A stretch of DNA of 50,859 bases from Bacteroidales bacterium (GCA_046261715.1 JBHEOF010000004.1:16064-66922); one strand, 5' to 3'. Positions 14,607 through 47,545 are shown, counted from the stretch's first letter. The notes: generated from the letters alone by a model not told the origin. A program made the numbers and translations.

Positions 14607-15269
14607 ATGAAAAAAAGGATTCGTCAGGACTTTAATACAATTTATCTTTTTCTCGGACTGCTACTGGGTTTTTTTCTTGGTAGCACAGTAGTATACTGGC
14701 ATTTTGACAGACAAAATGACAGAATTGTTCAGGAAGCTGTGGATAGAATTATTGCCATCTTTTCAGACAATAGCACCAGTGAAACCATCAACTTAAATGA
14801 ATTAAATATAAAAGGTGAGTCATCAAAGTCAAACAATGATTTATCGGAGAATGCTTTAACTGAAATTGAAAACCCGCCAATTTATTCCATCTTGCCTGAT
14901 TTTGATAATAACAATTATGCGTTTGCCCGCGATATACTCGTGGAAAGACGCATTATATCAGTCCCCATGCAATATTTTGAAAAAAGTTCATCAGAAAAGA
15001 TGCTTGAATCCGAAATTGGGGCAGATCCAGTGAATCAAAATACTCAGGTTTTTCATCTTGAGTTCTGGGAGTCTCCGTTAAACTCAGTGGGATATAAAAT
15101 GAGTAAAACAAGAATTGTTTTTTATGGTATAAAAACAGCTGAACTTGCCAGTATTCAGCATCATAACGGGAAGTTTTATCTGAATTACATGAATGATTTT
15201 TACCCAATTGAATTTACAACTACCTTTAAACCACTTGTACCGGAAAAACTGGCTGAACTTCCCGAATAA
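14607..15269 (+). CDS. Hypothetical membrane-anchored protein
   Basis: 220-aa ORF with one N-terminal TM, a low-complexity linker and a globular C-terminus (LEFWESPLNSVGYKM); ends 11 nt before dapF. Confidence 0.75.
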   Translation: MKKRIRQDFNTIYLFLGLLLGFFLGSTVVYWHFDRQNDRIVQEAVDRIIAIFSDNSTSETINLNELNIKGESSKSNNDLSENALTEIENPPIYSILPDFDNNNYAFARDILVERRIISVPMQYFEKSSSEKMLESEIGADPVNQNTQVFHLEFWESPLNSVGYKMSKTRIVFYGIKTAELASIQHHNGKFYLNYMNDFYPIEFTTTFKPLVPEKLAELPE

Positions 15270-20359: not shown

Positions 20360-23077
20360 ATGACCAAGGAAAAAGAAAAAAAAGCAGCTGAAAAGAAGAC
20401 AGCTGAAAAATGGCATGCAAAAGAAGCTGAAGAAGTGCTGAAAGAAATGGAAAGCAATGCCAATGATGGTCTGAGTGATAGTGAAGTTTCTGAAAGATTG
20501 GAGAAATATGGTAAAAACGAGCTTCCCAAAGGTAAAAAGCGAAGCTGGTGGATGCGCCTGCTGATGCAGTTTCACAACGTACTGATTTATGTTTTATTGG
20601 CTGCAGCAGTTATTACGGCCCTTATGGAGCATTATATTGATATGTGGGTTATTCTTGCGGTGGTTATGGTTAATGCCATCATCGGATTTATCCAGGAAGG
20701 AAAAGCTGAACAGGCAATGGAAAGCATACGTAATATGCTATCATTGAATGCAGTTGTAATAAGAAACGGTAAGAAAAAAACCATTGATGCAGAAGAACTG
20801 GTGCCTGGTGATATTGTGATGCTAAAATCGGGCAATAAAGTTCCTGCCGATTTACGTTTGATAAAAACCAAGGATCTTCAGGTGGAAGAATCGCCGCTTA
20901 CAGGAGAATCCACCTCAGTTGATAAATCTACAGATCCTGTGGAAGAAGATGCGGTTATAGGCGACCAGTATTCTATGGCATTTTCCGGAACCGTTGTTAC
21001 TTTCGGAAAAGCAACAGGAGTGGTAACTGCCACGGGTTTAAAAACAGAGTTGGGCAAAATCAAGGAGATGATGTCTGACGTGGAAGAAATTACCACACCC
21101 CTCTTACAAAAAATTGATAAGTTTGGAAAATGGCTTTCCCTTGTAATTATAGGAATTACTGCAGCATTCTTTGCTTTTGGATATTACCTGAGAGATTATT
21201 CAATTGATGAATTATTCCTTGCAGCCATCGGACTGATTGTCGCAGCAATCCCTGAAGGTTTGCCAGCCATTATGACCATTACACTGGCAATTGGAGTACA
21301 ACGTATGGCCAGTCGCAATGCAATTATCCGAAGATTACCTTCTGTTGAAACTCTTGGCGCAGTAAATGTAATTTGTTCTGATAAAACCGGTACTCTCACC
21401 CGCAATGAAATGACTGCCAGAACCATTGTAACTGCCGATAATAAGTATACAATTGAAGGAACAGGATATGAACCCGAAGGAAAAATTCTGTTGGATGAAA
21501 AAGAAGTTAATCCTGAAGATGATAAAGTTTTGCTTCAACTGTTAAAAACAATAAGAGCCAGCAACAATTCCGAAATTGAAAAAGATAATGATGGTAACTG
21601 GAAACTAACCGGCACTCCCACAGAAGGAGCATTATTAACCCTGAGTTATAAGGCAGGTTTTGAAGACTTCAAACCTGAACGTATTGACTCAATACCCTTT
21701 GAATCTGACCATAAATATATGGCAACTCTCAACCAGGTAAATGATGACAGGTATATTTTTATGACCGGTGCTCCTGAAAGGATCCTTGAAATGTGCGATA
21801 AGCAATATACTAAGGATGGAGAAAAAGATCTGGATGTGGAGTTCTGGGAGAAAAAAACAGATGAGGTAGCAGCCAAAGGCCAGCGGCTTTTGGGTGCAGC
21901 TTTCAGGAAGGTTGATAAAAACCGCAAAGATATTGAAAAGGACGATCTGAAAAAGAATAAAATATTCCTGGGAGTTATTGGTATCATTGACCCACCACGC
22001 GATGAAGTGATCGAAGCTATTAAAGAATGTAAAGAAGCAGGTGTACAGGTTAAAATGATCACCGGCGATCACGCCATTACTGCTAAAGCTATAGGTAAAG
22101 AAATTGGTATTGGTGATGGTGAAAAAGCTATGACAGGTAAGGAACTGGAAGAAAAGAGCGATGAAGACCTGCTAAAAATTGTACTGGAATATGATGTTTA
22201 TGCCCGCACCAGTCCTGAACACAAATTAAGGCTCGTTACCGCCCTGCAGAAGAATGATAAACTGGCTGCAATGACAGGGGATGGAGTGAACGACGCGCCT
22301 GCCCTTAAAAAGGCGAACATTGGCATTGCCATGGGTATCAAGGGTACTGAAGTTTCAAAAGATGCATCAGAAATGGTACTTGCCGATGATAATTTTGCAT
22401 CTATTGTAAATGCCATCGAAGAAGGACGAACGGTATATGACAACATCCGGAAGGCCATCCTTTTTATTCTGCCCACCAATGGAGCTGAAGCACTGGTGCT
22501 TATGGCTGCAATTTTGCTGGGTATCATAATGCCTATAACTCCCGTGCAGGTATTGTGGGTGAATATGGTTACGGCAGTTACACTTGCCCTGGCACTTTCT
22601 TTTGAACCTATGGAAGAAAAGGTGATGGAAAAACCTCCCCGAAAAGCTGATGAACCGATCCTGGGGCTCCACTTTGTATGGAGAATTGTTTTTGTTTCAT
22701 TTTTAATTGGTGGCCTAACGTTCTATGTTTTTAACTATGCACAAAATACGCTTGAGCTAAGCAATGAAATAGCGCGAACCCTGGCGGTAAACACACTGGT
22801 AGCCGGACAATTATTTTATCTTTTTAATTGCCGTAAAATTAAATTACCAAGCGTTGGTAAAGGATTTTTTAACAATCAATATGCATTTTATGCAGCAGCA
22901 GTTCTTGTAGCATTGCAAATGGTATTTGTTTATGTTCCGTTTATGAATACTTTTTTTGGTACAGCCCCAATCGAAAGTACTTTATGGCTCTACCCTGCAG
23001 TTTCAGGATTGATAGTTTTTATTGTTGTTGAAATTGAGAAGCTTATTGTGAATAAAATTACAGGTAAGAGTGATTAA
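20360..23077 (+). CDS. Type II cation-transporting P-type ATPase
   Basis: LTGES, IPEGLP, CSDKTGTLT (phospho-Asp), MITGDH and MTGDGVNDAPAL; about 10 TMs. Confidence 0.95.
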   Translation: MTKEKEKKAAEKKTAEKWHAKEAEEVLKEMESNANDGLSDSEVSERLEKYGKNELPKGKKRSWWMRLLMQFHNVLIYVLLAAAVITALMEHYIDMWVILAVVMVNAIIGFIQEGKAEQAMESIRNMLSLNAVVIRNGKKKTIDAEELVPGDIVMLKSGNKVPADLRLIKTKDLQVEESPLTGESTSVDKSTDPVEEDAVIGDQYSMAFSGTVVTFGKATGVVTATGLKTELGKIKEMMSDVEEITTPLLQKIDKFGKWLSLVIIGITAAFFAFGYYLRDYSIDELFLAAIGLIVAAIPEGLPAIMTITLAIGVQRMASRNAIIRRLPSVETLGAVNVICSDKTGTLTRNEMTARTIVTADNKYTIEGTGYEPEGKILLDEKEVNPEDDKVLLQLLKTIRASNNSEIEKDNDGNWKLTGTPTEGALLTLSYKAGFEDFKPERIDSIPFESDHKYMATLNQVNDDRYIFMTGAPERILEMCDKQYTKDGEKDLDVEFWEKKTDEVAAKGQRLLGAAFRKVDKNRKDIEKDDLKKNKIFLGVIGIIDPPRDEVIEAIKECKEAGVQVKMITGDHAITAKAIGKEIGIGDGEKAMTGKELEEKSDEDLLKIVLEYDVYARTSPEHKLRLVTALQKNDKLAAMTGDGVNDAPALKKANIGIAMGIKGTEVSKDASEMVLADDNFASIVNAIEEGRTVYDNIRKAILFILPTNGAEALVLMAAILLGIIMPITPVQVLWVNMVTAVTLALALSFEPMEEKVMEKPPRKADEPILGLHFVWRIVFVSFLIGGLTFYVFNYAQNTLELSNEIARTLAVNTLVAGQLFYLFNCRKIKLPSVGKGFFNNQYAFYAAAVLVALQMVFVYVPFMNTFFGTAPIESTLWLYPAVSGLIVFIVVEIEKLIVNKITGKSD

Positions 23078-23265: not shown

Positions 23266-24141
23266 CTACATAATCTTCTCTCTATATACACCCAGGTCTT
23301 TGGTCCACTGATTCACAATAAAACTGTTTTTATCAATCCAGTTTCTCACACCCACCAAAGGATCGGATTCAAGGCGTAATTCAAAAAGAAGAGAATTAAT
23401 TTGTGTTTCAGTAAGCTTCATTCTTTTAAAGAATTCTGCGGCTCGCGGATGTTCTTCTGAAAACCCCCGTCGTGCTAAAGTATGAATTTTTTCTTCCTCC
23501 ATAAATATTCTTTCAGGGTCATCCAGATAGCGCAATTCATAGCGATGGAACAGCCAATGGGGCTCCCAGCCTGTTATAACTATATCCTCACGGCGCCGGA
23601 TAGCATTTTCAAGCTTTTCGGTCATTTCACTCTCAGAGGATACCTGCAGATCATGTTTTAATTCATAAGCATCTATGGCTCTCCTGGTATGAAACATAAT
23701 ACCTGCTGCAGAATCAATTCCCACTAGTGTTCCATTATACAAATCATTTAATTGAGCAATACTTTCAGCTGCAAAATAATCAGGTACTACCAGACCTGTT
23801 CTGGCCATTTCGTAATTTGGGCCTAAATCCTCCAGTTCATTGTCGTACAACTGCAAATATTCGCTGTGGGTAGCCGGAAGCCATGCATCAGCAAATACAT
23901 CCGCCTCTCCTGCTGCAATATCATTAAATGCAGTGCTTACATCGGTCAGTTTCAGGATCACTTCGTAATCCAGATCCCTTTCAAGCAAAACCATAGCGAG
24001 ATGTGTTAGTGCAATACTCTCGGACCAGTCAGTATAAACTATAAAAATTTCTCCGGGTTTTTCTTCCCTGTATTCAGAAGGACCCTTGCATGCAAACATT
24101 ACAATGCCTGCAACCATAAATAAAATTGCTTTTTTAAACAT
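23266..24141 (-). CDS. Glycine betaine-type substrate-binding lipoprotein (OpuAC/ProX family), second copy
   Basis: Lipobox FAC; DWSES, DAWLPATH, LGPNY and GWEPHW retain the tryptophan-box residues. Confidence 0.9.
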   Translation of the reverse strand: MFKKAILFMVAGIVMFACKGPSEYREEKPGEIFIVYTDWSESIALTHLAMVLLERDLDYEVILKLTDVSTAFNDIAAGEADVFADAWLPATHSEYLQLYDNELEDLGPNYEMARTGLVVPDYFAAESIAQLNDLYNGTLVGIDSAAGIMFHTRRAIDAYELKHDLQVSSESEMTEKLENAIRRREDIVITGWEPHWLFHRYELRYLDDPERIFMEEEKIHTLARRGFSEEHPRAAEFFKRMKLTETQINSLLFELRLESDPLVGVRNWIDKNSFIVNQWTKDLGVYREKIM

Positions 24142-24152
24142 GACAAATCTTT

Positions 24153-25082
24153 TTAGTCAAACAATGCTTTTAAAAATCCCACAGATTCTTTCGAATCTTT
24201 TACTATTAAAACAGGGATATTCTTTTCAACACTTGCCAGCTTTTCAGAAGTACTGTCCATAATAACATTGGCAAGCTGCGATTTGAGCCTTGTACCTGTA
24301 AGCACAAGGTCAAATCTGTTTCTTACAGCATAATTGTAAAGCGATTGTGCTTCATCGCCCTTTAAATCAACCGAGTATTCAAACGGAATATCCTTGGGAA
24401 GTTTATATTTCTTAACAAACTTATTATATTGTTTTTCCATGTATGGATCAAGTTGTATTCTTAACTTTTGTAAAGCCAGGGAAGTTTGCTCCGGAAAATA
24501 ATTATAAGGAAGTTTGTAAACATGATGAAACTCAATATCAGCCTGTGTTTCTTTGGCTATCAAACTAGCCATATGATACGCCGCATATGATGGTTTTGCA
24601 AAATTGGTGCGCACCATAATTCGACTTATATTGTACGGAGTGGTTTCACTTATCAGCAACACCGAAGAAGGAATCAGTCCGATAATATTTTTAACAACAC
24701 CCCCTTCACCGGCAAACCCGATTTTTTTACCCATTAAGGCCAGGTCAGTTTTATTTTTACGTGCAAACTGAACGATTTTTTCAGTAGTAATTCCTGATTC
24801 AAGCACAACAGATGGTTTCAGAGTATCAGCATAGCTGAAAATGGCATCAACTTTCTCCTGAATTTCTTCAAGTATTATCTCATTAAGGGGTCGATGACTG
24901 TCCGATAGAGAATCTGAAAGTTCTTCCGGAATCTCATAGGTATCCATTACATGAATAAATGTAATGGATTTAGGTTTGAACCTTTCGACAATATAATTTG
25001 AATAATTGATAAGGGATTCATCCATATCAGTGAGATCCAGGCAAATAAGAATATTATCAAATTTAAACATACTTTTTTCCAT
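24153..25082 (-). CDS. Universal stress protein (tandem USP domains)
   Basis: NILICLDLT…FIHV…DLALMG and second domain IMVRTNF…FHHV…DLVLTGTR…PVLIVK; 309 aa. Confidence 0.88.
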   Translation of the reverse strand: MEKSMFKFDNILICLDLTDMDESLINYSNYIVERFKPKSITFIHVMDTYEIPEELSDSLSDSHRPLNEIILEEIQEKVDAIFSYADTLKPSVVLESGITTEKIVQFARKNKTDLALMGKKIGFAGEGGVVKNIIGLIPSSVLLISETTPYNISRIMVRTNFAKPSYAAYHMASLIAKETQADIEFHHVYKLPYNYFPEQTSLALQKLRIQLDPYMEKQYNKFVKKYKLPKDIPFEYSVDLKGDEAQSLYNYAVRNRFDLVLTGTRLKSQLANVIMDSTSEKLASVEKNIPVLIVKDSKESVGFLKALFD

Positions 25083-25085
25083 ATA

Positions 25086-26702
25086 TTAAGATTTTTTATC
25101 GCGTTTTGATATAAGTTCACCAACTATATCCTTATATGATTTTCTTTCTTTTTCAAGATCATGCCGCATAAGCATAAAGTACTCCTGTGAAAGTCCTTTA
25201 GTCAGACTATAGGTCATAATCATTAAAATGATGGTAAAAGGCAGCGCTGTAGTTATGGCAGCTGTTTGCAGTGCTCCCAACCCGCCACCAATAAGTAATA
25301 CAGCTGCAACACCACCTTCGGTGAGTGCCCAGAAAACTCTTTGAGCAACCGGTGCATCCAGTTTACCTCCGGCGGTAAGACTATCAATAACCAGAGAACC
25401 GGAGTCGGAAGATGTTACAAAGAAACTTGTTACCAGTATAATACCAACCACAGATGTAAAAGCTCCAATGGGAAACTGATCCAGAAGTACATACAGGGAA
25501 GTGGCGACATTGCTTTGCACTGCAGAAGTAATATCAGCCAATCCATTTAGTTCAAGATATAAAGCGGAGCCTCCGAAAGCTGATAACCATAAAAAGGTAA
25601 GAATGGTGGGCACAATCAAAACACCCAGTATAAACTCTCTGATCGTGCGCCCGCGTGAAATACGTGCAATAAACATTCCCACAAAGGGCGACCAGCTGAT
25701 CCACCAGGCCCAGTAAAAAACTGTCCAGCTTTTTTGCCAGTCACTTTGCGTATACGTTTCAGTCCAGAAACTCAGCTCAAAGAAATTCTGAAGATAAGCA
25801 CCTGTATTTTGTACAAAGGAGTTAAAAATAAAAAGACTTGGCCCAACAATCAGAATAAACAGCAAAAAGAAAGCAGCTATAATAATGTTAAGCTGACTTA
25901 ATCTTTTTACACCTTGGCTCAAACCTGCAACTACAGAACCTGTTGCAGCAAGGGTAATTAAACCAATGAGAAGCACCTGCATATTGGTTGTATCTGACAA
26001 ACCGGTAAGATGATTCAAACCCGCACTCACCTGCTGTACACCCAGACCCAATGATGTGGCCAAACCAAACAATGTTGCCACAACAGCAAGAACGTTAATG
26101 ATTTTTCCCGCTCTACCATGTACTTTTTCACCAATCAGTGGATAAAAAACCGAACTAATTGTCAATGGAAGTTTTTTATTGAATGTAAAAAATGCCAGCG
26201 ACATCCCCACCAAAGCATAAATACCCCATGCATGAAAGCCCCAATGAAGAAATGTAAGCCGCATGGATTGTCTGGCTGCCTCAATTGTTTCACCTGCACC
26301 AAGCGGCGGATTAATATAATGCAATACTGGTTCTCCTACACTCCAGAACAAAATACCAATTCCCATACCCGCACTGAACAACATGGAAAACCATGATCCC
26401 TTTTTGAACTCGGGCTTGGCTGTCCTGCCTCCTATTCGAATATTGCCGAATTTACTAAAAGCAATAGAGAGAGAAAAAATCAGGAAAAAGTTTACAGATA
26501 ATATAAAGAACCAACCTCCGTATTCTGAGATACTATCCTGAATACTGGCAAAAATCCGCTCCATGGGTTCACCTACTAATAGCGTAATACTAATAAATAA
26601 TACGATAACTACCGACGACGGCCAAAAAACCCACGGATCAACATCAAAATACTTTTTTTTCTTTATAATAGGATTTTTTTCTTCATGAAATTCTTTCTTC
26701 AT
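25086..26702 (-). CDS. BCCT-family transporter, glycine betaine/Na+ type (OpuD/BetP-like)
   Basis: MLFSAGMGIG, HWGFHAWGIY, WTVFYWAWWISWSPFVGMFIARISRGRTIREF and FFVTSSDSGS. Confidence 0.95.
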   Translation of the reverse strand: MKKEFHEEKNPIIKKKKYFDVDPWVFWPSSVVIVLFISITLLVGEPMERIFASIQDSISEYGGWFFILSVNFFLIFSLSIAFSKFGNIRIGGRTAKPEFKKGSWFSMLFSAGMGIGILFWSVGEPVLHYINPPLGAGETIEAARQSMRLTFLHWGFHAWGIYALVGMSLAFFTFNKKLPLTISSVFYPLIGEKVHGRAGKIINVLAVVATLFGLATSLGLGVQQVSAGLNHLTGLSDTTNMQVLLIGLITLAATGSVVAGLSQGVKRLSQLNIIIAAFFLLFILIVGPSLFIFNSFVQNTGAYLQNFFELSFWTETYTQSDWQKSWTVFYWAWWISWSPFVGMFIARISRGRTIREFILGVLIVPTILTFLWLSAFGGSALYLELNGLADITSAVQSNVATSLYVLLDQFPIGAFTSVVGIILVTSFFVTSSDSGSLVIDSLTAGGKLDAPVAQRVFWALTEGGVAAVLLIGGGLGALQTAAITTALPFTIILMIMTYSLTKGLSQEYFMLMRHDLEKERKSYKDIVGELISKRDKKS

Positions 26703-26764
26703 ACTTTACAGGTTTAATAATTAATGTTGTCTTATTAAATATTAACAATTTGAGAAGTAAAAAG

Positions 26765-26772
26765 CAAATGTA
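26765..26772 (-). promoter_or_regulatory. -7 element for the BCCT-USP-SBP operon
   Basis: Minus-strand TACATTTG, 62 nt before the BCCT start. Confidence 0.6.
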
Positions 26773-26837
26773 AAAAAAACCTGCAATAACTTAAAATTCA
26801 TAATTATTTCTTAAAAATTCAAGTTATAATATCTTTA

Positions 26838-26845
26838 TACCTTTG
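26838..26845 (+). promoter_or_regulatory. -7 element for the barrel/opuA operon
   Basis: TACCTTTG, 38 nt before ATG 26884. Confidence 0.6.
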
Positions 26846-26883
26846 CATACAAAGAAACCTTTTTAAGAACAAAAAATTTGCGT

Positions 26884-28137
26884 ATGATTTTTAAAACAGA
26901 CCATTTAAAAAACATTACAACCTTAAATTTATTACTAATCATTTTTACAGTTACTCCGGCAATAGCGCAGGATACTGATGATGAAGATTATTTGAATGTG
27001 GGCGGTGCAGTGAGGTACAACATTGCACACCAAAATTATGAAAGTGAACCTACAGCAACAAACACTTATGGAACAATGGATACATGGCGTTTAAACATAT
27101 CTGCCATGTACAGTGACGTAAGTCTTAGTTTTGAATACCGCTTCTATCCTACTTTTAACACACACTTTATACATCACGGATACCTGGGATATGATTTTTC
27201 AGATAACCTGAACATGCAACTGGGAGTAACCCAGGTACCCTTTGGTAACCTGACCTGGAATTCACACAGTTGGTGGTTTCTTACCCCTTATTATGTTGGT
27301 TTGGAAGATGATTACGACATGGGTATTAAGTTCTCTTATGACTTTTCTGAAAGACTCAATCTTATGTTTGCCTATTTTCGTCAGCAGGAACCTGCAGGCC
27401 CGGCCTACGGTAGTGCGAGCTTTGGTGGGCCCGGAGCTGGAACCTATTCCTACAATGTAATTCCTGATAATGCCGGCGTACTTTCTAATACAGGCGCTAA
27501 CTCCAGCATCAGGGAGTTAAACCAGTTTAATGCAAGGCTGAATTATGAAATCTTTGATGGAACCACTATTGGCTTTTCAGGACAACTACAAGGTTTGTAC
27601 AACTCTGTTCTTGAAGAAACTGAATATGGCCATGCCATTGCAGCACACCTTATGTCAAATTTTGACGACTTTAACCTGCAACTGCAGTTCATCAACTATG
27701 ATTATGCAGCCAAAGATGACGAAGGAAATACTCTTGACCGCATTCAGATGGGTGCCTACGGAGACCCCTACTATGGCGACGGTGTAGCTGCCCGTGCAAA
27801 TATTATTACAGCAGGACTTGCTTATACCATTGGTGTTGACTGGGGCCCCATTAGCAGTGTACAACCCTATATCGATTATTCTTTGATGACCAAAGATGGA
27901 GAAATCAACGGAATGAACTTCGAAAATACCCATATGCTTGTTCCTGGTTTCCTTATAACTGCAGGAAATATATATACTTATGTCGATTTTGCCATGGGTA
28001 AAAACCACCCCTGGTTAACAGACAGCTTCGGAACCGGACTGGGTGCCGGACATCTTACTGAAGAAGGCAACCCCGCACCCGTTGAAGATCTCGACTGGAA
28101 CCTGCGTTTCAATATCAATATTGGATACTACTTCTAA
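26884..28137 (+). CDS. Uncharacterised outer-membrane beta-barrel (putative porin)
   Basis: Signal peptide (…PAIA/QD), alternating amphipathic strands, rich in G/Y/N/D, C-terminal beta-signal LRFNINIGYYF. Confidence 0.8.
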   Translation: MIFKTDHLKNITTLNLLLIIFTVTPAIAQDTDDEDYLNVGGAVRYNIAHQNYESEPTATNTYGTMDTWRLNISAMYSDVSLSFEYRFYPTFNTHFIHHGYLGYDFSDNLNMQLGVTQVPFGNLTWNSHSWWFLTPYYVGLEDDYDMGIKFSYDFSERLNLMFAYFRQQEPAGPAYGSASFGGPGAGTYSYNVIPDNAGVLSNTGANSSIRELNQFNARLNYEIFDGTTIGFSGQLQGLYNSVLEETEYGHAIAAHLMSNFDDFNLQLQFINYDYAAKDDEGNTLDRIQMGAYGDPYYGDGVAARANIITAGLAYTIGVDWGPISSVQPYIDYSLMTKDGEINGMNFENTHMLVPGFLITAGNIYTYVDFAMGKNHPWLTDSFGTGLGAGHLTEEGNPAPVEDLDWNLRFNINIGYYF

Positions 28138-28358
28138 AAAAGCAGATAATTATTAAGCTCATCGTATTATTATTTACAAGTTAGAAATATATTACTTTTT
28201 AAAACCTTAAAATAAACATGTCTGCTCTGAAAAGTTCTTTCAAGCTACTTTTCACCTGAATGAAATTAATTTTTCCGGAAAGAAATTCTACTTGCTCCGT
28301 TTCCAGAGTTAAACTTTTTGGAGCATGCTATTGATTTACAAACTAAAATTGTATTATT

Positions 28359-29222
28359 ATGAAAAAGAGACAGAAATTATTTAACGGGATTGTTAGCTTT
28401 ATTGTGCTGGTTCTTGCGGCATTTGCATTTCAATCCTGTGAGCAGGAAGAAGAAAAAATTGAACTGGGTTATGTTTTATGGGATTCTGAAATTGCATCAA
28501 CCCATGTAGTAGCAGCAGTAATAGAAGACCGGCTTGACCAAGAAGTCTCTCTTACTGCAGTAGATGCAGGCCCAATGTGGATGGGCGTGGCCCGTGGTGA
28601 TTTTGATGCCATTGTTGCAGCATGGTTACCTGTAACACATGAAGCCTATCTTGAACAAACACAGGATGATATTATTAATCTGGGACCTAATCTTGAAGGT
28701 GCTCGTCTGGGTTGGGTTGTACCCTCGTATGTTACCATCAGCAGCATTGAAGAGCTGAATGAATATGCTGATGAATTTGAAGGTGAAATTACAGGAATTG
28801 ATCCCGGGGCAGGGCTCATGGCGGCAAGTGAAAATGTGATGGTAGCTTATGAGCTTGATGATTTCAGACTCGTTTCCGGTTCAGATGCCGCTATGACAGC
28901 AGCTCTGCGTCGTGCCATTGACAGAGAAGAATGGATTGTAGTTACCGGTTGGACACCCCACTGGAAATTTGCCGCTTTTGACCTGAAATATCTGGATGAC
29001 CCATTAAAGACATTGGGAGATGAAGAATATATTGCTACCATTGTGCATCCCGATCTGCAAACCAAGGCACCGGATGTGTATGAATTCCTGGATAACTTTT
29101 ACTGGACTCCGGAAGAAATGGCCGAAGTTATGATGCTGATTGAAGAAGGAATGGAGCCCTATGATGCTGCACGGCAGTGGGTAAGTGAAAATCAGGAAAA
29201 AGTTGATCAGTGGCTTGAGTAA
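28359..29222 (+). CDS. opuAC: Glycine betaine ABC transporter substrate-binding lipoprotein
   Basis: Lipobox FQSC; LWDSE, AAWLPVTH, LGPNLEGA, GIDPGAG, GWTPHW and LKYLDDP. Confidence 0.92.
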   Translation: MKKRQKLFNGIVSFIVLVLAAFAFQSCEQEEEKIELGYVLWDSEIASTHVVAAVIEDRLDQEVSLTAVDAGPMWMGVARGDFDAIVAAWLPVTHEAYLEQTQDDIINLGPNLEGARLGWVVPSYVTISSIEELNEYADEFEGEITGIDPGAGLMAASENVMVAYELDDFRLVSGSDAAMTAALRRAIDREEWIVVTGWTPHWKFAAFDLKYLDDPLKTLGDEEYIATIVHPDLQTKAPDVYEFLDNFYWTPEEMAEVMMLIEEGMEPYDAARQWVSENQEKVDQWLE

Positions 29223-29258
29223 AAGAAAGTTAAGATTAACTGCTACAAGTAGTTTTAT

Positions 29259-29294
29259 AATACTGCCGGTACTTATTTTTGTGCCGGCAGTATT
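29259..29294 (+). terminator. Strong intercistronic hairpin after opuAC (partial terminator or mRNA stabiliser)
   Basis: AATACTGCCGGTAC-ttattttt-GTGCCGGCAGTATT, a 14-bp stem with one G-U pair. Confidence 0.75.
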
Positions 29295-29329
29295 TATTGA
29301 ATTGTATTAATATATATTTCTATTATAAA

Positions 29330-30571
29330 ATGGAAAATAAAATTGTTGTAAAGAATTTATCGAAAATATTTGGCCCTAATCCGGAAAAAGGTCTTGATGC
29401 CCTAAAAAAGGGAATGTCAAAAAAAGAGGTTTTGCAAAAATACAATCAAAAGGTTGGTGCATACGACGTATCGTTTAATGTAAAAAACAGTGAAATATTT
29501 GTTTTGATGGGCTTATCGGGAAGTGGTAAATCTACCTTACAACGTTTGATCAACAGGCTACATGAGCCCACCAGAGGAGAAATTATCATTGACGGAACTG
29601 ATATTACCCGGCTTGGGAAAAAGGATTTACGCAAATTCCGACAAAAACATTTCTGCGGTATGGTATTTCAAAACTTTGCCATACTGCCTCATCTTACAGT
29701 TCAGGAGAATGTTGAATTCGGACTGGAACTTCAGGGCATTAGTAAAGAAAGCAGAGCAGAGAAGGCAATTGAGGTGATCAAACTGGTTGGGCTTGAAGGC
29801 AATGAAAACAGCTACCCTTCTGAGCTATCAGGAGGCATGCAGCAGCGTGTAGGGCTTGCAAGAGGTTTAGCTGTAGATGCAGATATTTTGCTCATGGATG
29901 AAGCTTTCAGTGCCCTTGACCCAATAATAAGAAGGCAAATGCAGGATGAACTGCTTATGATCCAGGACAGGATGCAGAAAACCATCATCTTTGTTACCCA
30001 TGATCTTGATGAGGCCTTTCGGCTCGGCAACCGCATTGCTATCATGAATGATGGAGCAATTGTACAAATAGGAACTGCAGAAGAAATTATCTCCAAACCT
30101 GCCAATGATTACGTAAGAGCATTTGTTGAGGATATGGACCGGTCTGCTATATTAACGGCTGGCGCTGTTATGCAACCCGTTGAAGATACTGCCTTCACGG
30201 GTGATGGTCCCCGTACTATACTTCGTAAAATCAGAAAAAAAGGTTTATCAGGCATTCTGGTTACCAATACAAGAAAAGAATTACAGGGTTACATAAGAGC
30301 GGCAGAACTAGCAGACTATATCAACCGGAATAAGGATAAAGAAGATATACCTTTCAACAATGATCTGGTTTATAAAATTAATGGAATCGATGAAGATACA
30401 CCGCTTACTGATATTATTAATATGTACAGCGATCATGAGTTCGGGCCCATTCCTGTGATTGATAAAAACAATATACTTAAAGGTGTTATTGTTAAAGGAT
30501 CAGTAATAGCAGCTCTTTCTGAATCAAACAGAAATGATAACAATGCACAGGAGCTTCTGGAAGAAGTTTAA
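29330..30571 (+). CDS. opuAA: Glycine betaine ABC transporter ATP-binding subunit with C-terminal CBS pair
   Basis: KNLSKIFG, GLSGSGKST, LSGGMQQRVGLAR, LMDEAFSALDP and THDLDEA; start MENK at 29330. Confidence 0.95.
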   Translation: MENKIVVKNLSKIFGPNPEKGLDALKKGMSKKEVLQKYNQKVGAYDVSFNVKNSEIFVLMGLSGSGKSTLQRLINRLHEPTRGEIIIDGTDITRLGKKDLRKFRQKHFCGMVFQNFAILPHLTVQENVEFGLELQGISKESRAEKAIEVIKLVGLEGNENSYPSELSGGMQQRVGLARGLAVDADILLMDEAFSALDPIIRRQMQDELLMIQDRMQKTIIFVTHDLDEAFRLGNRIAIMNDGAIVQIGTAEEIISKPANDYVRAFVEDMDRSAILTAGAVMQPVEDTAFTGDGPRTILRKIRKKGLSGILVTNTRKELQGYIRAAELADYINRNKDKEDIPFNNDLVYKINGIDEDTPLTDIINMYSDHEFGPIPVIDKNNILKGVIVKGSVIAALSESNRNDNNAQELLEEV

Positions 30572-30645
30572 CTGAAGTTATTGACCTGTAATACTTTTAT
30601 CACACATTATCTGAATAAAAAAAATAATCATTCAATATTTGCAAA

Positions 30646-31485
30646 ATGTTTAATTTCCGAATCCCTCTAGATGACTGGGTAACCAAAATAGTTGAATATC
30701 TTGAAAGAGAACTTGCACCCATTTTTGACGGCTTTAGTTCTTTAATTTTATTTATGGTAGACAGCCTGAAAGACGGTATGCTCTTTTTACCACCCCTGGT
30801 ATTGATAATAATTATTACAGCCATAACCTGGTACATGGCAGGATGGCGTAATAGTATTATAGCCTTTTTAGGACTCCTGCTAAGCGAAAACATTGGTCTC
30901 TGGGAAGCTTTTGTTGAAACCCTGGCCCTGGTATTATCAGCAGAGGTGCTGGTGGTTTTTATCGGTTTACCATTGGGTATAATGGCTGCCCGTAATGATC
31001 GTTTCAATGCAATTTTAAGACCCATACTTGACTTTATGCAAACCATGCCTGCATTTGTGTACCTTATACCGGCAGTAATGTTTTTCGGATTAGGACTGGT
31101 TCCGGGTGTGGTAGCTACCTTTGTGTTTGCTCTGCCGCCCCTTATAAGGCTTACCAATTTGGGAATAAGACAAGTGCCTGTTGAGCTGGTAGAAGCAGCT
31201 GACGCATTTGGTGCTACCGAAATGCAAAAACTTATGAAAGTGCAGATACCTGTGGCCAGGCCCACTATTCTGGCTGGTATTAACCAATCTATTATGCTGG
31301 GGCTGTCAATGGTAGTTATTGCAGCGATGATCGGTGCCGGTGGTCTTGGTGAAGATGTGCTTCGTGGTATTCAAAGATTGCAGGTAGGACAAGGCTTTGA
31401 AGCAGGACTTGTAGTTGTAATACTTGCCATTATTCTTGACCGGATTACCGCAGGATTTGGTGCCGGAAAGAAAACAACCAACTAA
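30646..31485 (+). CDS. opuAB: Glycine betaine ABC transporter permease
   Basis: PILDFMQTMPAFVYLIP, RLTNLGIRQV…EAADAFG (EAA loop) and SMVVIAAMIGAGGLG. Confidence 0.95.
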   Translation: MFNFRIPLDDWVTKIVEYLERELAPIFDGFSSLILFMVDSLKDGMLFLPPLVLIIIITAITWYMAGWRNSIIAFLGLLLSENIGLWEAFVETLALVLSAEVLVVFIGLPLGIMAARNDRFNAILRPILDFMQTMPAFVYLIPAVMFFGLGLVPGVVATFVFALPPLIRLTNLGIRQVPVELVEAADAFGATEMQKLMKVQIPVARPTILAGINQSIMLGLSMVVIAAMIGAGGLGEDVLRGIQRLQVGQGFEAGLVVVILAIILDRITAGFGAGKKTTN

Positions 31486-31508: not shown

Positions 31509-32774
31509 TTAAACAAATAAAATAAGACTTACGATACCTGAAATCATTATTAAGAATGAAGACATTATCAACTGCTTGCTTCTGTTAATACCAGCAATAA
31601 AAGAGAAAAAAGCAGTTTTAAAAAATGTATTCATAACAACAGCAATTACAATTCCTGTAACAGCACTGGAATGAGCCAATGCTTCATTGGCTTTTTTAGA
31701 TAAAGAAAGTGTAATAGCATCAACATCCATAACTCCGGAAATGAGAGAAATAAAATAAATTCCCTGTTCACCAAAGTAATTTTCAGCTGCATGTGTTAGA
31801 AAGAGAATTACTGCCAGTAAAAATCCGAATTTCAAAGCACGTGATAACTGCAAAGGATTTTCAATTTTTATTTCTTTATCTTCATCAGAAGATGATGGGC
31901 TACTTTTCCAAATCCAGAATCCACAAATCAATGTAACCACAAACATAACTGAAAGTGGAACCCACAATAATGAAAGTAAAGTTGAATTTACAACAGCTAC
32001 TTCAATAAATACCCGGACAAAACTAATGGATGATGCAAGTAAAACGCCCGACATAAAAATATGTATACCGGCGGCACTTTTCCCTTTGGCCATAGCAGCC
32101 AAACTGAAAGTAATGGCTGTGGAAGATGCCATTCCGCCCACAAAAGATGTCAATAAAGGACCAAACTTATGGCCAATTAGTCGTGTAAGTATATACCCTA
32201 CAAAAGAAAGCCCTGAGATTAGCACTACCATCCACCATATCCAGTAAGGATTAAGCGCATCCCAGGGGCCAAAACCCTGATCTGGCAGTAAGGGGAGAAA
32301 AATAACAGAAATGATCAATAACTTGATCCAGGCATAAATTTCTTTGAGTTCAATTTTTTTTAACCAGTTATGCAAAGTGGGCTTCAGGTTCAGTAATGTT
32401 AATACCACTACTGCCGCTATAAGCGCCGGCAATTTGTAGCCCAGTGATGCCCACACTCCAAGTGAAAATGTGATCAGAAGTCCAATTTCAGTGGTGAGTC
32501 CAACATCGGGAGAAGTTTGTTTTTGCGACAAATAGCCGGCAATGATCAATGCAACCAGGCCCAGAAATATAATACCCAGCATCCAGGCAGGCACCAGTTG
32601 AGTCATTTGTGCCCACACACCACCCAGCAAACCTACAAGACTGAATGTTCGAATACCGGCTACACGTTTCCCTTCATCATCGGCACGACTTGTCCAGCCA
32701 CGCTCAATGCCTATGAGCAAACCTACACCAAGAGCTACTGAAAGATCCCATAAAATTTCAAGCGTACCATCCAT
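31509..32774 (-). CDS. MgtC/SapB-family membrane protein with C-terminal DUF4010
   Basis: GLLIGIERGW, AGIRTF, GLTTE, WWMVVLISGLSFVGY, GGMASSTA and SGVMDVDA; ~13 TMs. Confidence 0.88.
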   Translation of the reverse strand: MDGTLEILWDLSVALGVGLLIGIERGWTSRADDEGKRVAGIRTFSLVGLLGGVWAQMTQLVPAWMLGIIFLGLVALIIAGYLSQKQTSPDVGLTTEIGLLITFSLGVWASLGYKLPALIAAVVVLTLLNLKPTLHNWLKKIELKEIYAWIKLLIISVIFLPLLPDQGFGPWDALNPYWIWWMVVLISGLSFVGYILTRLIGHKFGPLLTSFVGGMASSTAITFSLAAMAKGKSAAGIHIFMSGVLLASSISFVRVFIEVAVVNSTLLSLLWVPLSVMFVVTLICGFWIWKSSPSSSDEDKEIKIENPLQLSRALKFGFLLAVILFLTHAAENYFGEQGIYFISLISGVMDVDAITLSLSKKANEALAHSSAVTGIVIAVVMNTFFKTAFFSFIAGINRSKQLIMSSFLIMISGIVSLILFV

Positions 32775-34111: not shown

Positions 34112-34564
<453 letters not shown>

Positions 34565-34588
34565 TTAGTATTTAATTTGAGTGAAACG

Positions 34589-36406
34589 TTAGGTTAATTT
34601 TTTAAATGGATAATATTTCTTTCCACCACCGGAAAAACCGGCATTTTTATAAAACTCTACAAAAGTAAGACGCATGGGGTGCACAAATGCTCCCAGTCCC
34701 GACATGAACAGGTTAATACCATGACCTATAACAAGAATAATTACCATGATAAGGATGCTTAGCACAGGTATATTACCGCTCATAGATACTGCAAGGCTGT
34801 TAAATACAAACCCGAGGATTGCACTGGAAATACCCAAAGCAAACAAACGGATATACGACAGCAGGTCACCCAAAATTCCTGTTACCATGTTGTATGAATC
34901 CCAGAGACCTACACCCAGATTCATAAACACGTTGCGGGTAAGATTATTGAGAAGCAGGATCATTGAACCGCTTATTCCAAGCAGTGCATACCAAACAGGC
35001 GTTAATGAACTGCTTTCAACTACAGTAAATTCACCAATGGAATAAACAATGATTGAACCCACAAGTAAAACAATCCAGCCTATGGTGCCGATGGCCAGTT
35101 TCCAGCCGTATTGACGGGCTTCGTTGATAGCTTTCAGGAACAAACCAAAAATGATCTGTACACCACCCAATGCCAGCGATAAGTAAAACAACAGATTGTT
35201 TATGTCGGTTCCCCGGGCTTCCAGATCGGCTGCCAGGGTTGAATACACCGGCAAGGAAGTTTCATACAACGGAATTCCGAAGAAGGTTCCTCCGATGATA
35301 CCAAAAAATATGGTAGACAAACCCAGGTAGAACACAAGACCCATGGTTTGTTTGAGTTCTTTGGGCACTTTTTTCTTGAGAAGAGTGGCAGCAATAGCCA
35401 TCAAAATACCATAACCAGCATCTCCCAGGCAAAAACCGAAGAAAACCATATAGAATGGAGCGAAAAATGGAGTAAGATCCAGCTCACCGTATTTAGGCAA
35501 AGAATAAAGCTCACCAAGCATTTCAAATTTCTGCGAAAACTTCTTGTTTTTGAGCTCAATGGGAATCTTATCTCCTTTGACTGCTTTCTGACGTGTATAC
35601 ACCACAGAAGTTTTCTCAAGATATTCAACCATGTCGGCCTCTTTGGGTTGTGGCACCCAACCTTCAAGCAACATCACCTTTTCTTCGGCTTCGGCGCGGG
35701 TATGCATTATGGCCTGGTCGTATTCAACTGTCTCAAGCATTTGCTTGTAGAAGCCTTCAATGGCATCCATACTTTCACGTGCATGCTTATCGAAAAGTTC
35801 GTTTATATCGGCTATTTCCTTCTCCAGTTTTTCTTTGGCCTCCAGCAATTCAGAAAGTGGCTTTTCGGGAGTACGCATTTCTTCGGCAGGTATTTCATCA
35901 GTAAGATTACCCTTCTCAACCGCAACGAAATATACTTGTCCGGCATGCTCCGAAATTACTTCAATGGGGTATTCTTCAAGCCATTTCTCATCAAACTTGC
36001 TTTGGGCAATGGTATAAAACCGCAGCTTAATACGATTCTCCTTAAGAGCTTCAAGGGTTTTGAGAGAAAAGTCACCCCAGGGTTCAACAAGATTGATTTC
36101 TTTCCTGAGAGTTGCCAGGTTCTGATGCTTCTGCTCAATCTCTTCCATCGCTTTGTTTACAATATCAAAAGCTTCAGCGCCTGAGATACTGCAATCTGCA
36201 TCATTTCGTTCTATCTCCCTTTTGGAGAGAAACTTCAATACATTACCGATTTCCTTGATATGATCAAATTTATCTCTGATCTCAGAAGGTATTTCCTTTT
36301 CCTTTTCAATGATATGCACAACGCCCAGGCGGCGCAATTCTTTGAGGAACCGGGAATAGTCCTTATGGTAAACAAGGAAAGAATATTTTAACATGGGAAC
36401 TATCAT
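34589..36406 (-). CDS. ntpI: V/A-type ATPase subunit I (a)
   Basis: LLEGWVP, FFGFCLGDAGYG, GDLLSYIRLFALG (essential Arg) and HPMRLTFVEF. Confidence 0.96.
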   Translation of the reverse strand: MIVPMLKYSFLVYHKDYSRFLKELRRLGVVHIIEKEKEIPSEIRDKFDHIKEIGNVLKFLSKREIERNDADCSISGAEAFDIVNKAMEEIEQKHQNLATLRKEINLVEPWGDFSLKTLEALKENRIKLRFYTIAQSKFDEKWLEEYPIEVISEHAGQVYFVAVEKGNLTDEIPAEEMRTPEKPLSELLEAKEKLEKEIADINELFDKHARESMDAIEGFYKQMLETVEYDQAIMHTRAEAEEKVMLLEGWVPQPKEADMVEYLEKTSVVYTRQKAVKGDKIPIELKNKKFSQKFEMLGELYSLPKYGELDLTPFFAPFYMVFFGFCLGDAGYGILMAIAATLLKKKVPKELKQTMGLVFYLGLSTIFFGIIGGTFFGIPLYETSLPVYSTLAADLEARGTDINNLLFYLSLALGGVQIIFGLFLKAINEARQYGWKLAIGTIGWIVLLVGSIIVYSIGEFTVVESSSLTPVWYALLGISGSMILLLNNLTRNVFMNLGVGLWDSYNMVTGILGDLLSYIRLFALGISSAILGFVFNSLAVSMSGNIPVLSILIMVIILVIGHGINLFMSGLGAFVHPMRLTFVEFYKNAGFSGGGKKYYPFKKLT

Positions 36407-37005
36407 AAGCTTTCCTCCATCTCCTGAATTCGTGATTTCACAATTTTTTGTGCAGCTTTCGAAAGGTTTTCTTCATCTTCCATGTATCGCTTAATTTTGC
36501 GTATGGCATCCTGAAAACCAGGGATCTGCACTTTTTCATATAGGTTCACCTTTTGGGTGGTTTTACGACGGGCATGTTCAAGTAATTCCATTTTCTGGTT
36601 GAAGACTTCGCTTTCAATGGCAATTTTCGCCAGCTCCTTGCTGATAGAAATACCATCTAAATACCAGGAGGGTTTATTAAATACGCTGAACTCTTTTACA
36701 GAGAAAACCACTCCATCGAGCACAGGAGTTTTTACCCCGGCAATCTTCTTTACCGAAACATCCACTTCATCAACAGAAACCAGATCGTTATCGAACTCAC
36801 CCCACATTTCCACAACTTCTTCATACTTTGCAAGTTTCCTGCGCAGTTCTTTTTCAAGACGCTCGGCTTCCGTTTTGGCTTTCTTTACTTCAACCCTCAG
36901 TGCAGCTTCTTTGTTTTTCAGGGTGGGCAAAGCCTTTTCCCTGATCTTGAGCTGCTTTTCAAGTTGCTGTAAAGATGTTTTATTATATTGAAACTTTATA
37001 GCCAT
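36403..37005 (-). CDS. ntpD: V/A-type ATPase subunit D
   Basis: ALPTLKNKE and RKTTQKVNLYEKVQIP; coiled-coil; operon position. Confidence 0.95.
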   Translation of the reverse strand: MAIKFQYNKTSLQQLEKQLKIREKALPTLKNKEAALRVEVKKAKTEAERLEKELRRKLAKYEEVVEMWGEFDNDLVSVDEVDVSVKKIAGVKTPVLDGVVFSVKEFSVFNKPSWYLDGISISKELAKIAIESEVFNQKMELLEHARRKTTQKVNLYEKVQIPGFQDAIRKIKRYMEDEENLSKAAQKIVKSRIQEMEESL

Positions 37006-37012
37006 ATATGAT

Positions 37013-37040
37013 GGTTTAGGGTTTAGGGTGTAAGGTTTAA
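37013..37040. repeat. Heptamer tandem repeat (GGTTTAR)4 between ntpB and ntpD
   Basis: ggtttag ggtttag ggtgtaa ggtttaa, followed by a complementary ccctaaa. Confidence 0.75.
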
Positions 37041-37071
37041 TAAGCCTGCCCTAAAACTTTTCACTTCTATA

Positions 37072-38397
37072 TCAATTTTCTTTCCAGTATTTCTCTACGA
37101 ATTCTTTTTTGAGTCCTACTTCTACCGGAGTGAAATATTTTGAAAACAATTCGTAAGCTGTTTCAAGCATCACGTCTACTTCTATGTTTACATCGATGGC
37201 CAGCAGTTTTTCAGAGTATGCTTTGGCAAATTCAATTGTCCGTTCGTCATAATCTGTAAGGTCAAAACCGTTTTCCAGCTTTGTTTTAGCGTTGGCAGCA
37301 TCTGCATATAAACGAACCGCAGCATTCATAACCTGTGGGTGATCTTCACGGGTTTTCTTGCCAATAACCAATTGTTTCAAACGAGATAAGGAACGAAACG
37401 GGTCAACAATTACTTTACCGATGTCAGAGTCTTTACGTAAAAAAAGCTGACCTTCGGTGATATACCCTGTGTTGTCGGGGATAGCATGTGTAATATCGCC
37501 ACTGGAAAGTGTAGTTACAGCAATAATGGTAATTGAACCACCATCAGGAAACTGAACCGCTTTCTCATACAAACGGGCCAGGTCAGAATATAATGAACCC
37601 GGCATACTGTCTTTCGATGGAATCTGATCCATACGGTTTGATACAATACTCAATGCATCGGCATAGAGTGTAAGGTCGGTTAAAAGTACCAGAACCTTTT
37701 CTCCTTTTTCTGAAGCATAATACTCAGCAGCTGCAAGAGCCATATCAGGCACCAGCAAACGTTCAACGGGTGGATTTTCGGTAGTATTGATAAAACCTAC
37801 AATACGGTCAAGTGCTCCGGCATCGTCGAACACCCTTTTAAAGTAAAGGTAATCGTCATTTGTAAGACCCACACCACCCAGGATGATCTTATCGGCCTGA
37901 GCTCTGAGAGCTACCATTGCCATTACCTGGTTGTAAGGCTGATCGGGATCGGCAAAAAACGGGATTTTCTGCCCGGTAACCAAGGCATTATTGAGGTCGA
38001 TACCTGCAATACCCGTTGCAATAAATTCGGAGGGTTGTTCACGCCTTACGGGGTTAACACTTGGGCCCCCTATCTCGATTTCGTCACCCATGATCTCACC
38101 ACCATCGATGGGTTCACCATAGGCATTAAAGAACCGGCCGGCAAGTCCTTCGCCTACTTTAAGAGTGGGAGCTTTCCCTGTGAAGATCACCTCTGCGTCG
38201 TTTGCAATACCTTCAGTACCGGCAAATACCTGCAGGGTAACTACATCTTCCATGATCTTTACTACCTGGGCCAAACGTCCGTCAACAATAGCAAGTTCTT
38301 CATTACCAATACCTGTGGCATGCAAAGAAACCGTTGCCTTGGTAAGTTGAAACAGTTTGGTATATACGCGCTGAAATGCTTTTGTGTCTTTTTCCAT
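37072..38397 (-). CDS. ntpB: V/A-type ATPase subunit B
   Basis: TGIAGID, GQKIPFF, PGSLYSDLARLYEKA, DITHAIPDNTGYITEGQ and SLSRLK. Confidence 0.97.
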   Translation of the reverse strand: MEKDTKAFQRVYTKLFQLTKATVSLHATGIGNEELAIVDGRLAQVVKIMEDVVTLQVFAGTEGIANDAEVIFTGKAPTLKVGEGLAGRFFNAYGEPIDGGEIMGDEIEIGGPSVNPVRREQPSEFIATGIAGIDLNNALVTGQKIPFFADPDQPYNQVMAMVALRAQADKIILGGVGLTNDDYLYFKRVFDDAGALDRIVGFINTTENPPVERLLVPDMALAAAEYYASEKGEKVLVLLTDLTLYADALSIVSNRMDQIPSKDSMPGSLYSDLARLYEKAVQFPDGGSITIIAVTTLSSGDITHAIPDNTGYITEGQLFLRKDSDIGKVIVDPFRSLSRLKQLVIGKKTREDHPQVMNAAVRLYADAANAKTKLENGFDLTDYDERTIEFAKAYSEKLLAIDVNIEVDVMLETAYELFSKYFTPVEVGLKKEFVEKYWKEN

Positions 38398-40154: not shown

Positions 40155-40160
40155 ATATAT

Positions 40161-40991: not shown

Positions 40992-41132
40992 TTGCTATCC
41001 TTTTTTAGTTTTTAAATGACAGGTTTTTGTTTTCCTTCTAAAAATCTTTGGGTTTTTGTTCCTGATGTTTTACCTGAGAAAGTTAATCACAATCCAAACT
41101 TAATATGTGATCTTTCAAAAACCCATGAAAAT

Positions 41133-46780: not shown

Positions 46781-46782
46781 AA

Positions 46783-47124: not shown

Positions 47125-47127
47125 AAA

Positions 47128-47541: not shown

Positions 47542-47545
47542 CTTC

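Follow-up and report, generated by a model that had tools for sequence, protein, structure and literature searches.

Solute-specific outer-membrane channels whose genes lie beside a binding-protein-dependent importer for the same solute are a familiar arrangement, exemplified by LamB, which is encoded with malEFGK in Escherichia coli, and by OprB, which accompanies a glucose ATP-binding cassette (ABC) importer. OprB is encoded beside sugar-uptake genes in Pseudomonas and Acinetobacter, a role cited in PMC9162365. For osmoprotectants, reviews and primary papers leave the crossing of the outer membrane to passive passage by way of general porins (PMC5924519, PMC13300293), and the first of these, a review, has ectoines crossing that membrane "probably via general porins" (PMC5924519). 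Here we describe a seven-gene locus in a 50,859-nucleotide (nt) stretch of DNA from a Bacteroidales bacterium (GCA_046261715.1, JBHEOF010000004.1:16064-66922; this whole stretch is "the window", and positions are counted from its first letter), in which the gene for a porin-fold barrel stands among genes for an OpuA-type ABC importer and a BCCT carrier. Relatives of this barrel lie next to one or the other kind of importer in nearly all of the gene neighbourhoods that we compared, and we consider it likely that the barrel is a diffusion porin with a selectivity for quaternary amines, glycine betaine or others, whose gene accompanies those of its inner-membrane importers in the manner of LamB and OprB. 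The logic would be the same, whereas the components differ: LamB and OprB are 18-strand sugar channels, while the present barrel has 16 strands, is proposed to serve quaternary-amine solutes, and pairs with BCCT carriers as well as ABC importers. The operon-encoded, solute-selective porin is thus a known kind, but this solute class and this protein family have not been described before in the literature that was searched, where we found no description of a betaine, choline or compatible-solute porin (subscription journals and closed supplements lay outside the scope of the search).

The locus consists of two divergent units, with the BCCT carrier, a tandem universal stress protein (USP) and a second substrate-binding protein (SBP2) on the minus strand, and the barrel, OpuAC, OpuAA and OpuAB on the plus strand. 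The coordinates of the open reading frames (ORFs) and their Pfam and NCBIfam matches place all seven genes where, and in the families to which, an earlier reading of this DNA without database searches (the sequence-only reading) had assigned them:

23266..24141, minus strand: SBP2, an OpuAC-type substrate-binding lipoprotein and the final gene of the BCCT-USP-SBP2 unit (PF04069, 2.1e-54; lipobox ...MFAC, Cys18)
24153..25082, minus strand: tandem USP (PF00582, two stretches)
25086..26702, minus strand: BCCT carrier of the glycine-betaine type (PF02028, 644 bits; TIGR00842, 526.3 bits against a cut-off of 407.55)
26703..26883: divergent intergenic region of 181 nt, with TAnnTTTG boxes at 26765-26772 (minus) and 26838-26845 (plus)
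26884..28137, plus strand: predicted outer-membrane barrel with the 16-strand porin fold, 417 amino acids (aa), with an alternative TTG start at 26878
28138..28358, plus strand: barrel-opuAC spacer of 221 nt, in which no signal was detected
28359..29222, plus strand: OpuAC, a substrate-binding lipoprotein of the glycine-betaine type (PF04069, 1.6e-70; lipobox ...FQSC, then EQEEEK)
29279..30571, plus strand: OpuAA/ProV ATPase with a C-terminal CBS domain (ABC_tran and CBS; TIGR01186 proV, 405.7 bits against a cut-off of 326.6); its true start may lie a few codons 3' of the TTG
30646..31485, plus strand: OpuAB/ProW permease (PF00528, BPD_transp_1; TIGR03416, 334.7 bits, and NF008196, 296.4 bits, both below the equivalog cut-offs)

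The ORF ends confirm the earlier minus-strand gaps of 3 nt (BCCT-USP) and 11 nt (USP-SBP2), and give plus-strand gaps of 221, 56 and 74 nt between successive genes from the barrel to OpuAB. The earlier statement that the locus has no TonB-dependent or SusC-like gene also stands, since none was found among the window ORFs of at least 200 aa. In the genome from which the window comes (3.48 Mb, 88% complete), a single barrel gene, a single BCCT gene and a pair of OpuAC-type genes were found, every one of them at this locus.

The barrel family is large and, by name, undescribed. A protein collection clustered at 90% identity contains at least 1336 relatives at E<=1e-3, which group into 452 clusters at 50% identity, and the best 120 of the 1336 are either unnamed or called "hypothetical protein". 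In contigs representing one genome per species, 564 stretches encode a relative; the record titles of the best 80 of these name Bacteroidales, Marinilabiliales, Balneolales, Prosthecochloris, Ignavibacteriales, Melioribacteraceae, Gemmatimonadetes, Chitinispirillaceae and a GN15 assembly, and Porphyromonas and the gammaproteobacterium Alkalisalibacterium are among the members further away. The family therefore ranges over Bacteroidota (including Bacteroides), Balneolales, Chlorobi, Ignavibacteria, Gemmatimonadota, Chitinispirillaceae, the GN15 assembly and at least one gammaproteobacterium. A distant subfamily was queried with the protein P0233, which is about 31% identical to the window barrel and 38-49% identical to the other members of its subfamily. 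This distant branch has 488 metagenome matches, many in records titled "human gut metagenome"; at E<=1e-20 this gut-type branch comprises 1027 proteins, among whose names are Bacteroides nordii, B. coprosuis, Coprobacter and Carboxylicivirga.

Gene contexts were taken from the best 80 of the 564 genome loci and the best 80 of the 488 metagenome loci. Seventy-two of the genome loci were usable, with at least 1500 nt downstream and an intact barrel ORF; L023, L038, L063, L064, L067, L069, L074 and L076 were set aside for short downstream DNA or want of an intact barrel ORF, and among these L074 still shows the start of an OpuAA gene and L064 an OpuAC. An Opu-type ABC or BCCT gene adjoins the barrel in 71 of the 72, and in 67 a same-strand Opu ABC, OpuAC-type substrate-binding protein (SBP) or BCCT gene follows the barrel directly. 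The gap from the barrel to the next gene has a median of 44 nt and ranges from -42 to 650 in this set, whose layouts are:

38 loci: barrel, then OpuAA-OpuAB-SBP on the same strand
16 loci: barrel, then BCCT, 14 of them also with a USP
12 loci: barrel, then SBP-OpuAA-OpuAB, three of them (L001, L005, L073) also with a divergent BCCT-USP-SBP2 unit as in the window
3 loci (L003, L011, L012): barrel with the divergent BCCT-USP-SBP2 unit only
1 locus (L019): barrel, then SBP alone
1 locus (L071): barrel as the final gene of an OpuA operon
1 locus (L007): barrel without any Opu or BCCT neighbour

At L007 (Alkalitalea saponilacus; L007:1422-5421) the next gene on the barrel's strand resembles that of a TonB-dependent receptor (Plug, OMP_b-brl_3, CarboxypepD_reg); this genome has one BCCT gene, located elsewhere, and no PF04069 gene was found in it. 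The distant metagenome set gives much the same picture, with an Opu or BCCT gene next to the barrel in 67 of the 70 loci that have sufficient downstream DNA (the remaining three are L111, L137 and L162), and with the first gene after the barrel being OpuAA-like in 35, an Opu-type permease in 24 and a BCCT gene in eight; these loci may repeat the same species. A further layout is found in gut-type relatives, at L100 (L100:5980-9379) and about 24 similar metagenome loci, where the barrel is followed by a permease (213 aa), a PF04069 protein (314 aa) and an ATPase that lacks CBS (241 aa), the permease and PF04069 frames of L100 overlapping.

A further view of the linkage comes from 251 Bacteroidota genomes drawn evenly. 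The barrel is present in 15 of them, BCCT in 26, PF04069 in 33, and BCCT or PF04069 in 55, and all 15 barrel genomes belong to the 55. With the window's own genome left out, the barrel adjoins an importer in 11 of 14 genomes, lying directly upstream of BCCT in seven and upstream of an OpuA operon in four, while in the other three (G212, G104 and G052) it is an orphan among unrelated genes. Enrichment of barrel homologues beside BCCT and OpuA genes, which had been set in advance as a result on which the sequence-only reading should stand or fall, is thus found in the genome loci, the metagenome loci and the evenly drawn sample alike, and conserved linkage to importers of one solute class, a trait of operon-encoded solute-specific porins, is a property of this family. 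The same comparison narrows the earlier proposal that the seven genes are one module: the locus is real, but its full seven-gene layout recurs in only three of the 80 genome loci (L001, L005 and L073), all of them close relatives, and the general unit is the barrel plus one importer.

Which importer that is has changed many times. On a tree of 80 barrels (L041, L050 and L076 were left out for their length, and L064 for lack of an ORF), partner class requires at least 13 changes, compared with a mean of 34.1 when the labels are shuffled, and well-supported sister pairs join an ABC locus to a BCCT locus (L062 and L070, support 95; L078 and L080, support 100). Judged from this tree, the barrel family has recombined repeatedly with mechanistically unrelated importers. 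Since the trait that the partners share is their substrate class, we believe that the linkage follows substrate and not one particular transporter, and the partner changes argue against an obligatory protein-protein contact.

The barrel itself has a signal peptide (residues 1-29) and a C-terminus ending in ...NINIGYYF, and matches no Pfam or NCBIfam model. An AlphaFold model built on a 51-sequence family alignment (A1) has 16 strands (pLDDT 93.5, pTM 0.88), joined on the periplasmic side by turns of 2-4 residues and on the outside by long loops (L3 118-143, L4 169-208, L6 274-303, L8 374-405). The signal peptide, the aromatic C-terminal end and the predicted 16-strand structure bear out the earlier call of an outer-membrane barrel, and it is from these that we infer its location. 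The model shares the 16-strand fold of OprP and displays the traits of OmpF/OmpC-type porins, namely 16 antiparallel strands, short periplasmic turns, a long L3 reaching into the lumen and a C-terminal aromatic residue. Foldseek searches with the model return 16-strand porins at E-values of 1e-12 to 1e-10 and identities of 9-14%. The best match is the Vibrio chitoporin VhChiP (5mdq, E 4.8e-13), which is likewise an OmpF-like 16-strand barrel with an evolved solute specificity, although it is only 11% identical to the barrel and its substrates are chitooligosaccharides; OprP and OprO give the nominally best Z (25.9 and 25.8). Sequence similarity is far fainter: family profiles A1 and A2 match no PDB chain, the window barrel has no match to PF07396 (Porin_O_P) at E<=1, and weak PF07396 matches occur in seven of the 51 family members (best 4e-7). 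Among relatives, the L088 barrel scores 19.5 bits and the L100 barrel 21.8 bits, on either side of the PF07396 gathering score of 20.9 bits, and neighbouring Atlas clusters have been labelled "Phosphate-selective porin O and P" or "Porin" by automatic naming. The barrel thus has a porin fold and stands at the outermost margin of Porin_O_P, in a family that was previously unnamed. The genome has one further Porin_O_P gene, distinct from the barrel and outside the window (G000:C230:1058-1468, minus strand, 26.5 bits).

In A1, L3, the constriction loop, is the best-conserved loop, with a mean column identity of 0.68 against 0.23-0.41 in the other loops; the strands mostly fall at 0.42-0.58, and only the terminal strand, at 0.75, exceeds L3. 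The loop holds a PFG motif, seven conserved aromatic positions (F120, W125, W130, W131, F132, Y136 and Y137) and the acidic run E141-D142-D143. Elsewhere in the barrel R44 (strand 1) and R86 (strand 3) are conserved, and are the sole arginines that are invariant or near-invariant in A1, while R218, K337, K373 and R408 are conserved as basic positions.

The importers are of recognizable osmoprotectant types. The plus-strand unit has the traits of an OpuA/ProU-type importer, with a CBS-containing ATPase, a ProW-type permease and a PF04069 SBP, and both SBPs of the locus are nearest to solved glycine-betaine binders: OpuAC to the substrate-binding domain of Lactococcus lactis OpuA (7ahc, 1.9e-71) and to Bacillus subtilis OpuAC (2b4l, 1.3e-67), and SBP2 to B. 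subtilis OpuAC (2b4l, 1.3e-47) and then to L. lactis OpuA (7ahc). Three tryptophans of SBP2 (W39, W87 and W192), which we take to form the ligand cage, are invariant across 37 SBPs. In the OpuAC of the window (28359-28460) about six mostly acidic residues (C-EQEEEK) separate the lipidated cysteine from the first strand; this acidic segment is confined to the clade of SBPs encoded first in their operon, while SBPs of ATPase-first operons have tethers rich in Gly, Ser and Lys. The idea of a surface-export signal on the SBPs was set aside, since the acidic stretch behind the lipobox cysteine is found in the SBP-first clade alone, where it makes a tether of no more than about six residues. The carrier has the features of the BCCT family, including the glycine-rich segment AGMGIG and the tryptophan-rich segment WTxFYWxWWIxWSP, both invariant in alignment A3 and both of functional significance in BCCT carriers; against NF047988, the glycine betaine BCCT equivalog, it scores 600.7 bits, under the cut-off of 650.

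BCCT, USP and SBP2 form one tight unit in the window and in all six related divergent units. The tandem USP follows BCCT in each of these six (L001, L003, L005, L011, L012 and L073) and lies directly after it in 14 of the 16 BCCT-type loci (L051-L061, L070, L075 and L080), in several phyla. A USP encoded with an osmoprotectant importer has a parallel in Halomonas elongata, where, according to PMC9006882, TeaD is encoded with the importer TeaABC and modulates it. By analogy, the USP may regulate the BCCT carrier as TeaD does TeaABC, with the difference that TeaABC is a TRAP transporter, whereas the USP of the window is a tandem-domain protein beside a BCCT carrier. SBP2 raises a further question of partnership. 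In the assemblies of L003, L011 and L012 (G251-G253; drafts of unknown completeness) SBP2 is the only PF04069 gene, there is one BCCT gene each, and no ProW-type permease was detected (best 1.6e-10 or none), while an identical search found matches of 5e-72 and 8e-99 in those of L001 and L073 (G256 and G257). The draft assembly of L019 (G255) has its barrel-SBP pair and a BCCT-linked SBP, with no match to the OpuAB protein query. It is conceivable, though in our estimation quite unlikely, that SBP2 needs no ABC transporter and instead serves as a tethered periplasmic protein passing betaine from the porin to the BCCT carrier. A predicted BCCT-SBP2 complex scored 0.01 against a mark of 0.32, which counts neither for nor against binding. 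If true, betaine would move along a relay in three tiers, from porin through binding protein to secondary carrier, and no earlier case of a BCCT system assisted by a binding protein would exist; we found no description of a BCCT carrier with a binding protein and a USP in the literature searched.

The sequence-only reading had proposed back-to-back -7 boxes between the divergent units, and TAnnTTTG does occur at both positions; the motif is not, however, enriched, with 63 matches in the whole window against 65.7 expected. Because this frequency is that of chance, the boxes are plausible promoters by position alone. L001, the nearest relative, has both boxes at these positions, and L012 and L073 share the minus-strand one. 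Sigma-70-like sites are likewise at chance level (34 against 27.9 expected). No shared operator was found 5' of the barrel, the 16 aligned upstream regions being conserved only between the window and its nearest relatives. The barrel-opuAC spacer contains no terminator-like site in a consensus scan, no TAnnTTTG on the plus strand and no unusual RNA fold (z 0.05), and Rfam has no matches across the whole window. Co-transcription of the barrel with opuAC-opuAA-opuAB is likely, as judged from this sequence, but not certain.

A pathway for uptake can be proposed. One promoter would transcribe the porin with opuAC-opuAA-opuAB, and the divergent one BCCT-USP-SBP2. Consider, then, a cell exposed to an osmoprotectant such as glycine betaine. 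The solute would diffuse through the porin across the outer membrane, passing an eyelet at which L3, rich in aromatic residues and acidic, would face the conserved arginines of the wall and so favour a zwitterionic trimethylammonium compound; the aromatic and acidic residues would take the trimethylammonium group and the arginines the carboxylate, provided that these residues do line the pore. From the periplasm the solute would then be taken up either by the lipid-anchored OpuAC and the OpuA ABC system or by the Na+/H+-coupled BCCT carrier.

At the same time, a number of observations weigh against a dedicated betaine porin. Its specificity is read from gene context and conservation, and L3 is conserved in general porins too. 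Moreover, E. coli OmpC and OmpF are reported to pass glycine betaine (PMC13300293), which is small enough for general porins. The loci compared come from related genomes and metagenomes and are not mutually independent, and four barrels (L007 and L085-L087) are orphans, with a BCCT gene elsewhere in each genome. The 221-nt spacer leaves co-transcription with opuAC uncertain. In the evenly drawn sample, the barrel lies beside only eight of 30 BCCT matches and in only five of 33 PF04069 genomes beside the importer gene, and no barrel adjoins the fused permease-SBP form that is common in one family. Since most BCCT and OpuA loci are without an adjacent barrel, the importers must be able to work without it, and the barrel is an accessory of a minority of importer loci, not a required part. 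In Bacteroides thetaiotaomicron opuA is BT1749-BT1751; a literature search for BT1752 and BT1748 found nothing. A preprint (PMC13733963) reports this operon to consist of three genes and to provide osmoprotection after transfer to another genus, and neither "porin" nor "outer membrane" occurs in its text.

These points lend themselves to a different interpretation, in which the barrel is an osmoregulated general "osmoporin" like OmpC that shares a promoter with the importers, since both answer to osmolarity, and has no particular betaine selectivity. We think this unlikely. Conserved arginines on strands 1 and 3 opposite an acidic L3 also make up the eyelet of general porins such as OmpF, and both the reported passage of betaine through OmpC and OmpF (PMC13300293) and the existence of orphan barrels are in keeping with it. 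An osmoporin would hardly be expected to keep its operon linkage while its partner changed 13 times or more, with gaps ranging from -42 to a few hundred nt and with at least four importer layouts, nor would one expect 15 of 15 sampled barrel genomes to carry BCCT or OpuAC. Presence in only 15 of 251 Bacteroidota genomes also speaks against a housekeeping role for the barrel. The general porins OmpC and OmpF have their genes elsewhere in the genome, whereas the barrel is operon-linked to importers and, in the sample, confined to importer genomes.

If the barrel is indeed a dedicated channel, one may still ask how it is coupled to the importers, and the seven genes could in principle form a physical trans-envelope machine in which the porin contacts an SBP or a carrier, for example through docking of a lipoprotein SBP in the manner of SusCD. 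That both SBPs are lipoproteins, that L019 consists of a barrel followed by an SBP alone, and that three assemblies have SBP2 but no ProW permease that could be detected would all fit such a machine. We nevertheless regard it as very unlikely. SusC/SusD, from the same phylum, is likewise an outer-membrane barrel co-encoded with lipoprotein binding proteins. Against a machine, the 16 BCCT-type loci have a barrel without an SBP, so that SBP contact cannot be general; one barrel family serves mechanistically unrelated carriers; the acidic segment after the lipidated cysteine is limited to one SBP clade; and the window has no TonB/ExbBD, plug domain or periplasm-spanning adaptor. Unlike in SusC/SusD, there is here no plug domain, TonB-dependent barrel or SusD fold, and transport would be by passive diffusion. 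The earlier proposal of a trans-envelope uptake system is thus retained in part: the reading of a dedicated channel passes the test of linkage, but what it describes is a functional relay, and nothing indicates a physical complex. Coupling is probably by shared substrate, and probably by shared expression, and not by a physical bridge.

In OprP an arginine ladder and a lysine cluster give phosphate selectivity. That the barrel is instead a phosphate- or anion-selective porin whose position is incidental, as the automatic cluster names, the nominally best Z of OprP and OprO and the weak PF07396 matches (up to the 21.8 bits of L100) might suggest, is extremely improbable, given that the window barrel has no sequence match to OprP/OprO of Pseudomonas aeruginosa (PF07396) or to any PDB chain through its profiles, that its conserved L3 residues are aromatic and acidic with few arginines, that two arginines are invariant or near-invariant in A1 where OprP has a multi-arginine ladder, and that the genes beside the barrel in the examined contexts are Opu or BCCT genes, with no phosphate-uptake genes among them.

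The module is surrounded in the window by genes for ion homeostasis, and the P-type ATPase still adjoins SBP2 in L001, L003, L011 and L073. In order, the flanks are:

20360-23077, plus strand: P-type cation ATPase
31509-32774, minus strand: MgtC/DUF4010
34112-41750, minus strand: V-type ATPase operon, including a DUF2764 gene
45302-49849, minus strand: Mrp/Mbh-type antiporter subunits

For two further ORFs, at 14607-15269 (plus strand, 220 aa) and 41133-41750 (minus strand, 205 aa), Pfam gives nothing at E<=1e-5.

Overall, we believe that a porin dedicated to glycine betaine or other quaternary amines remains the most attractive explanation of this locus and of its relatives, and the finding points to a specific protein family for the outer-membrane step of osmoprotectant uptake. 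Annotation can be improved at once, by describing these proteins as porins whose genes accompany Opu and BCCT importers. If the porin limits the entry of betaine or choline at low external concentration, it would offer a simple model of how a 16-strand porin gains selectivity for a small zwitterion, it would be a missing part in attempts to engineer osmotolerance by transfer of opuA alone, and it would affect the competition of gut and marine Bacteroidota for osmoprotectants and for the precursors of methylamines.

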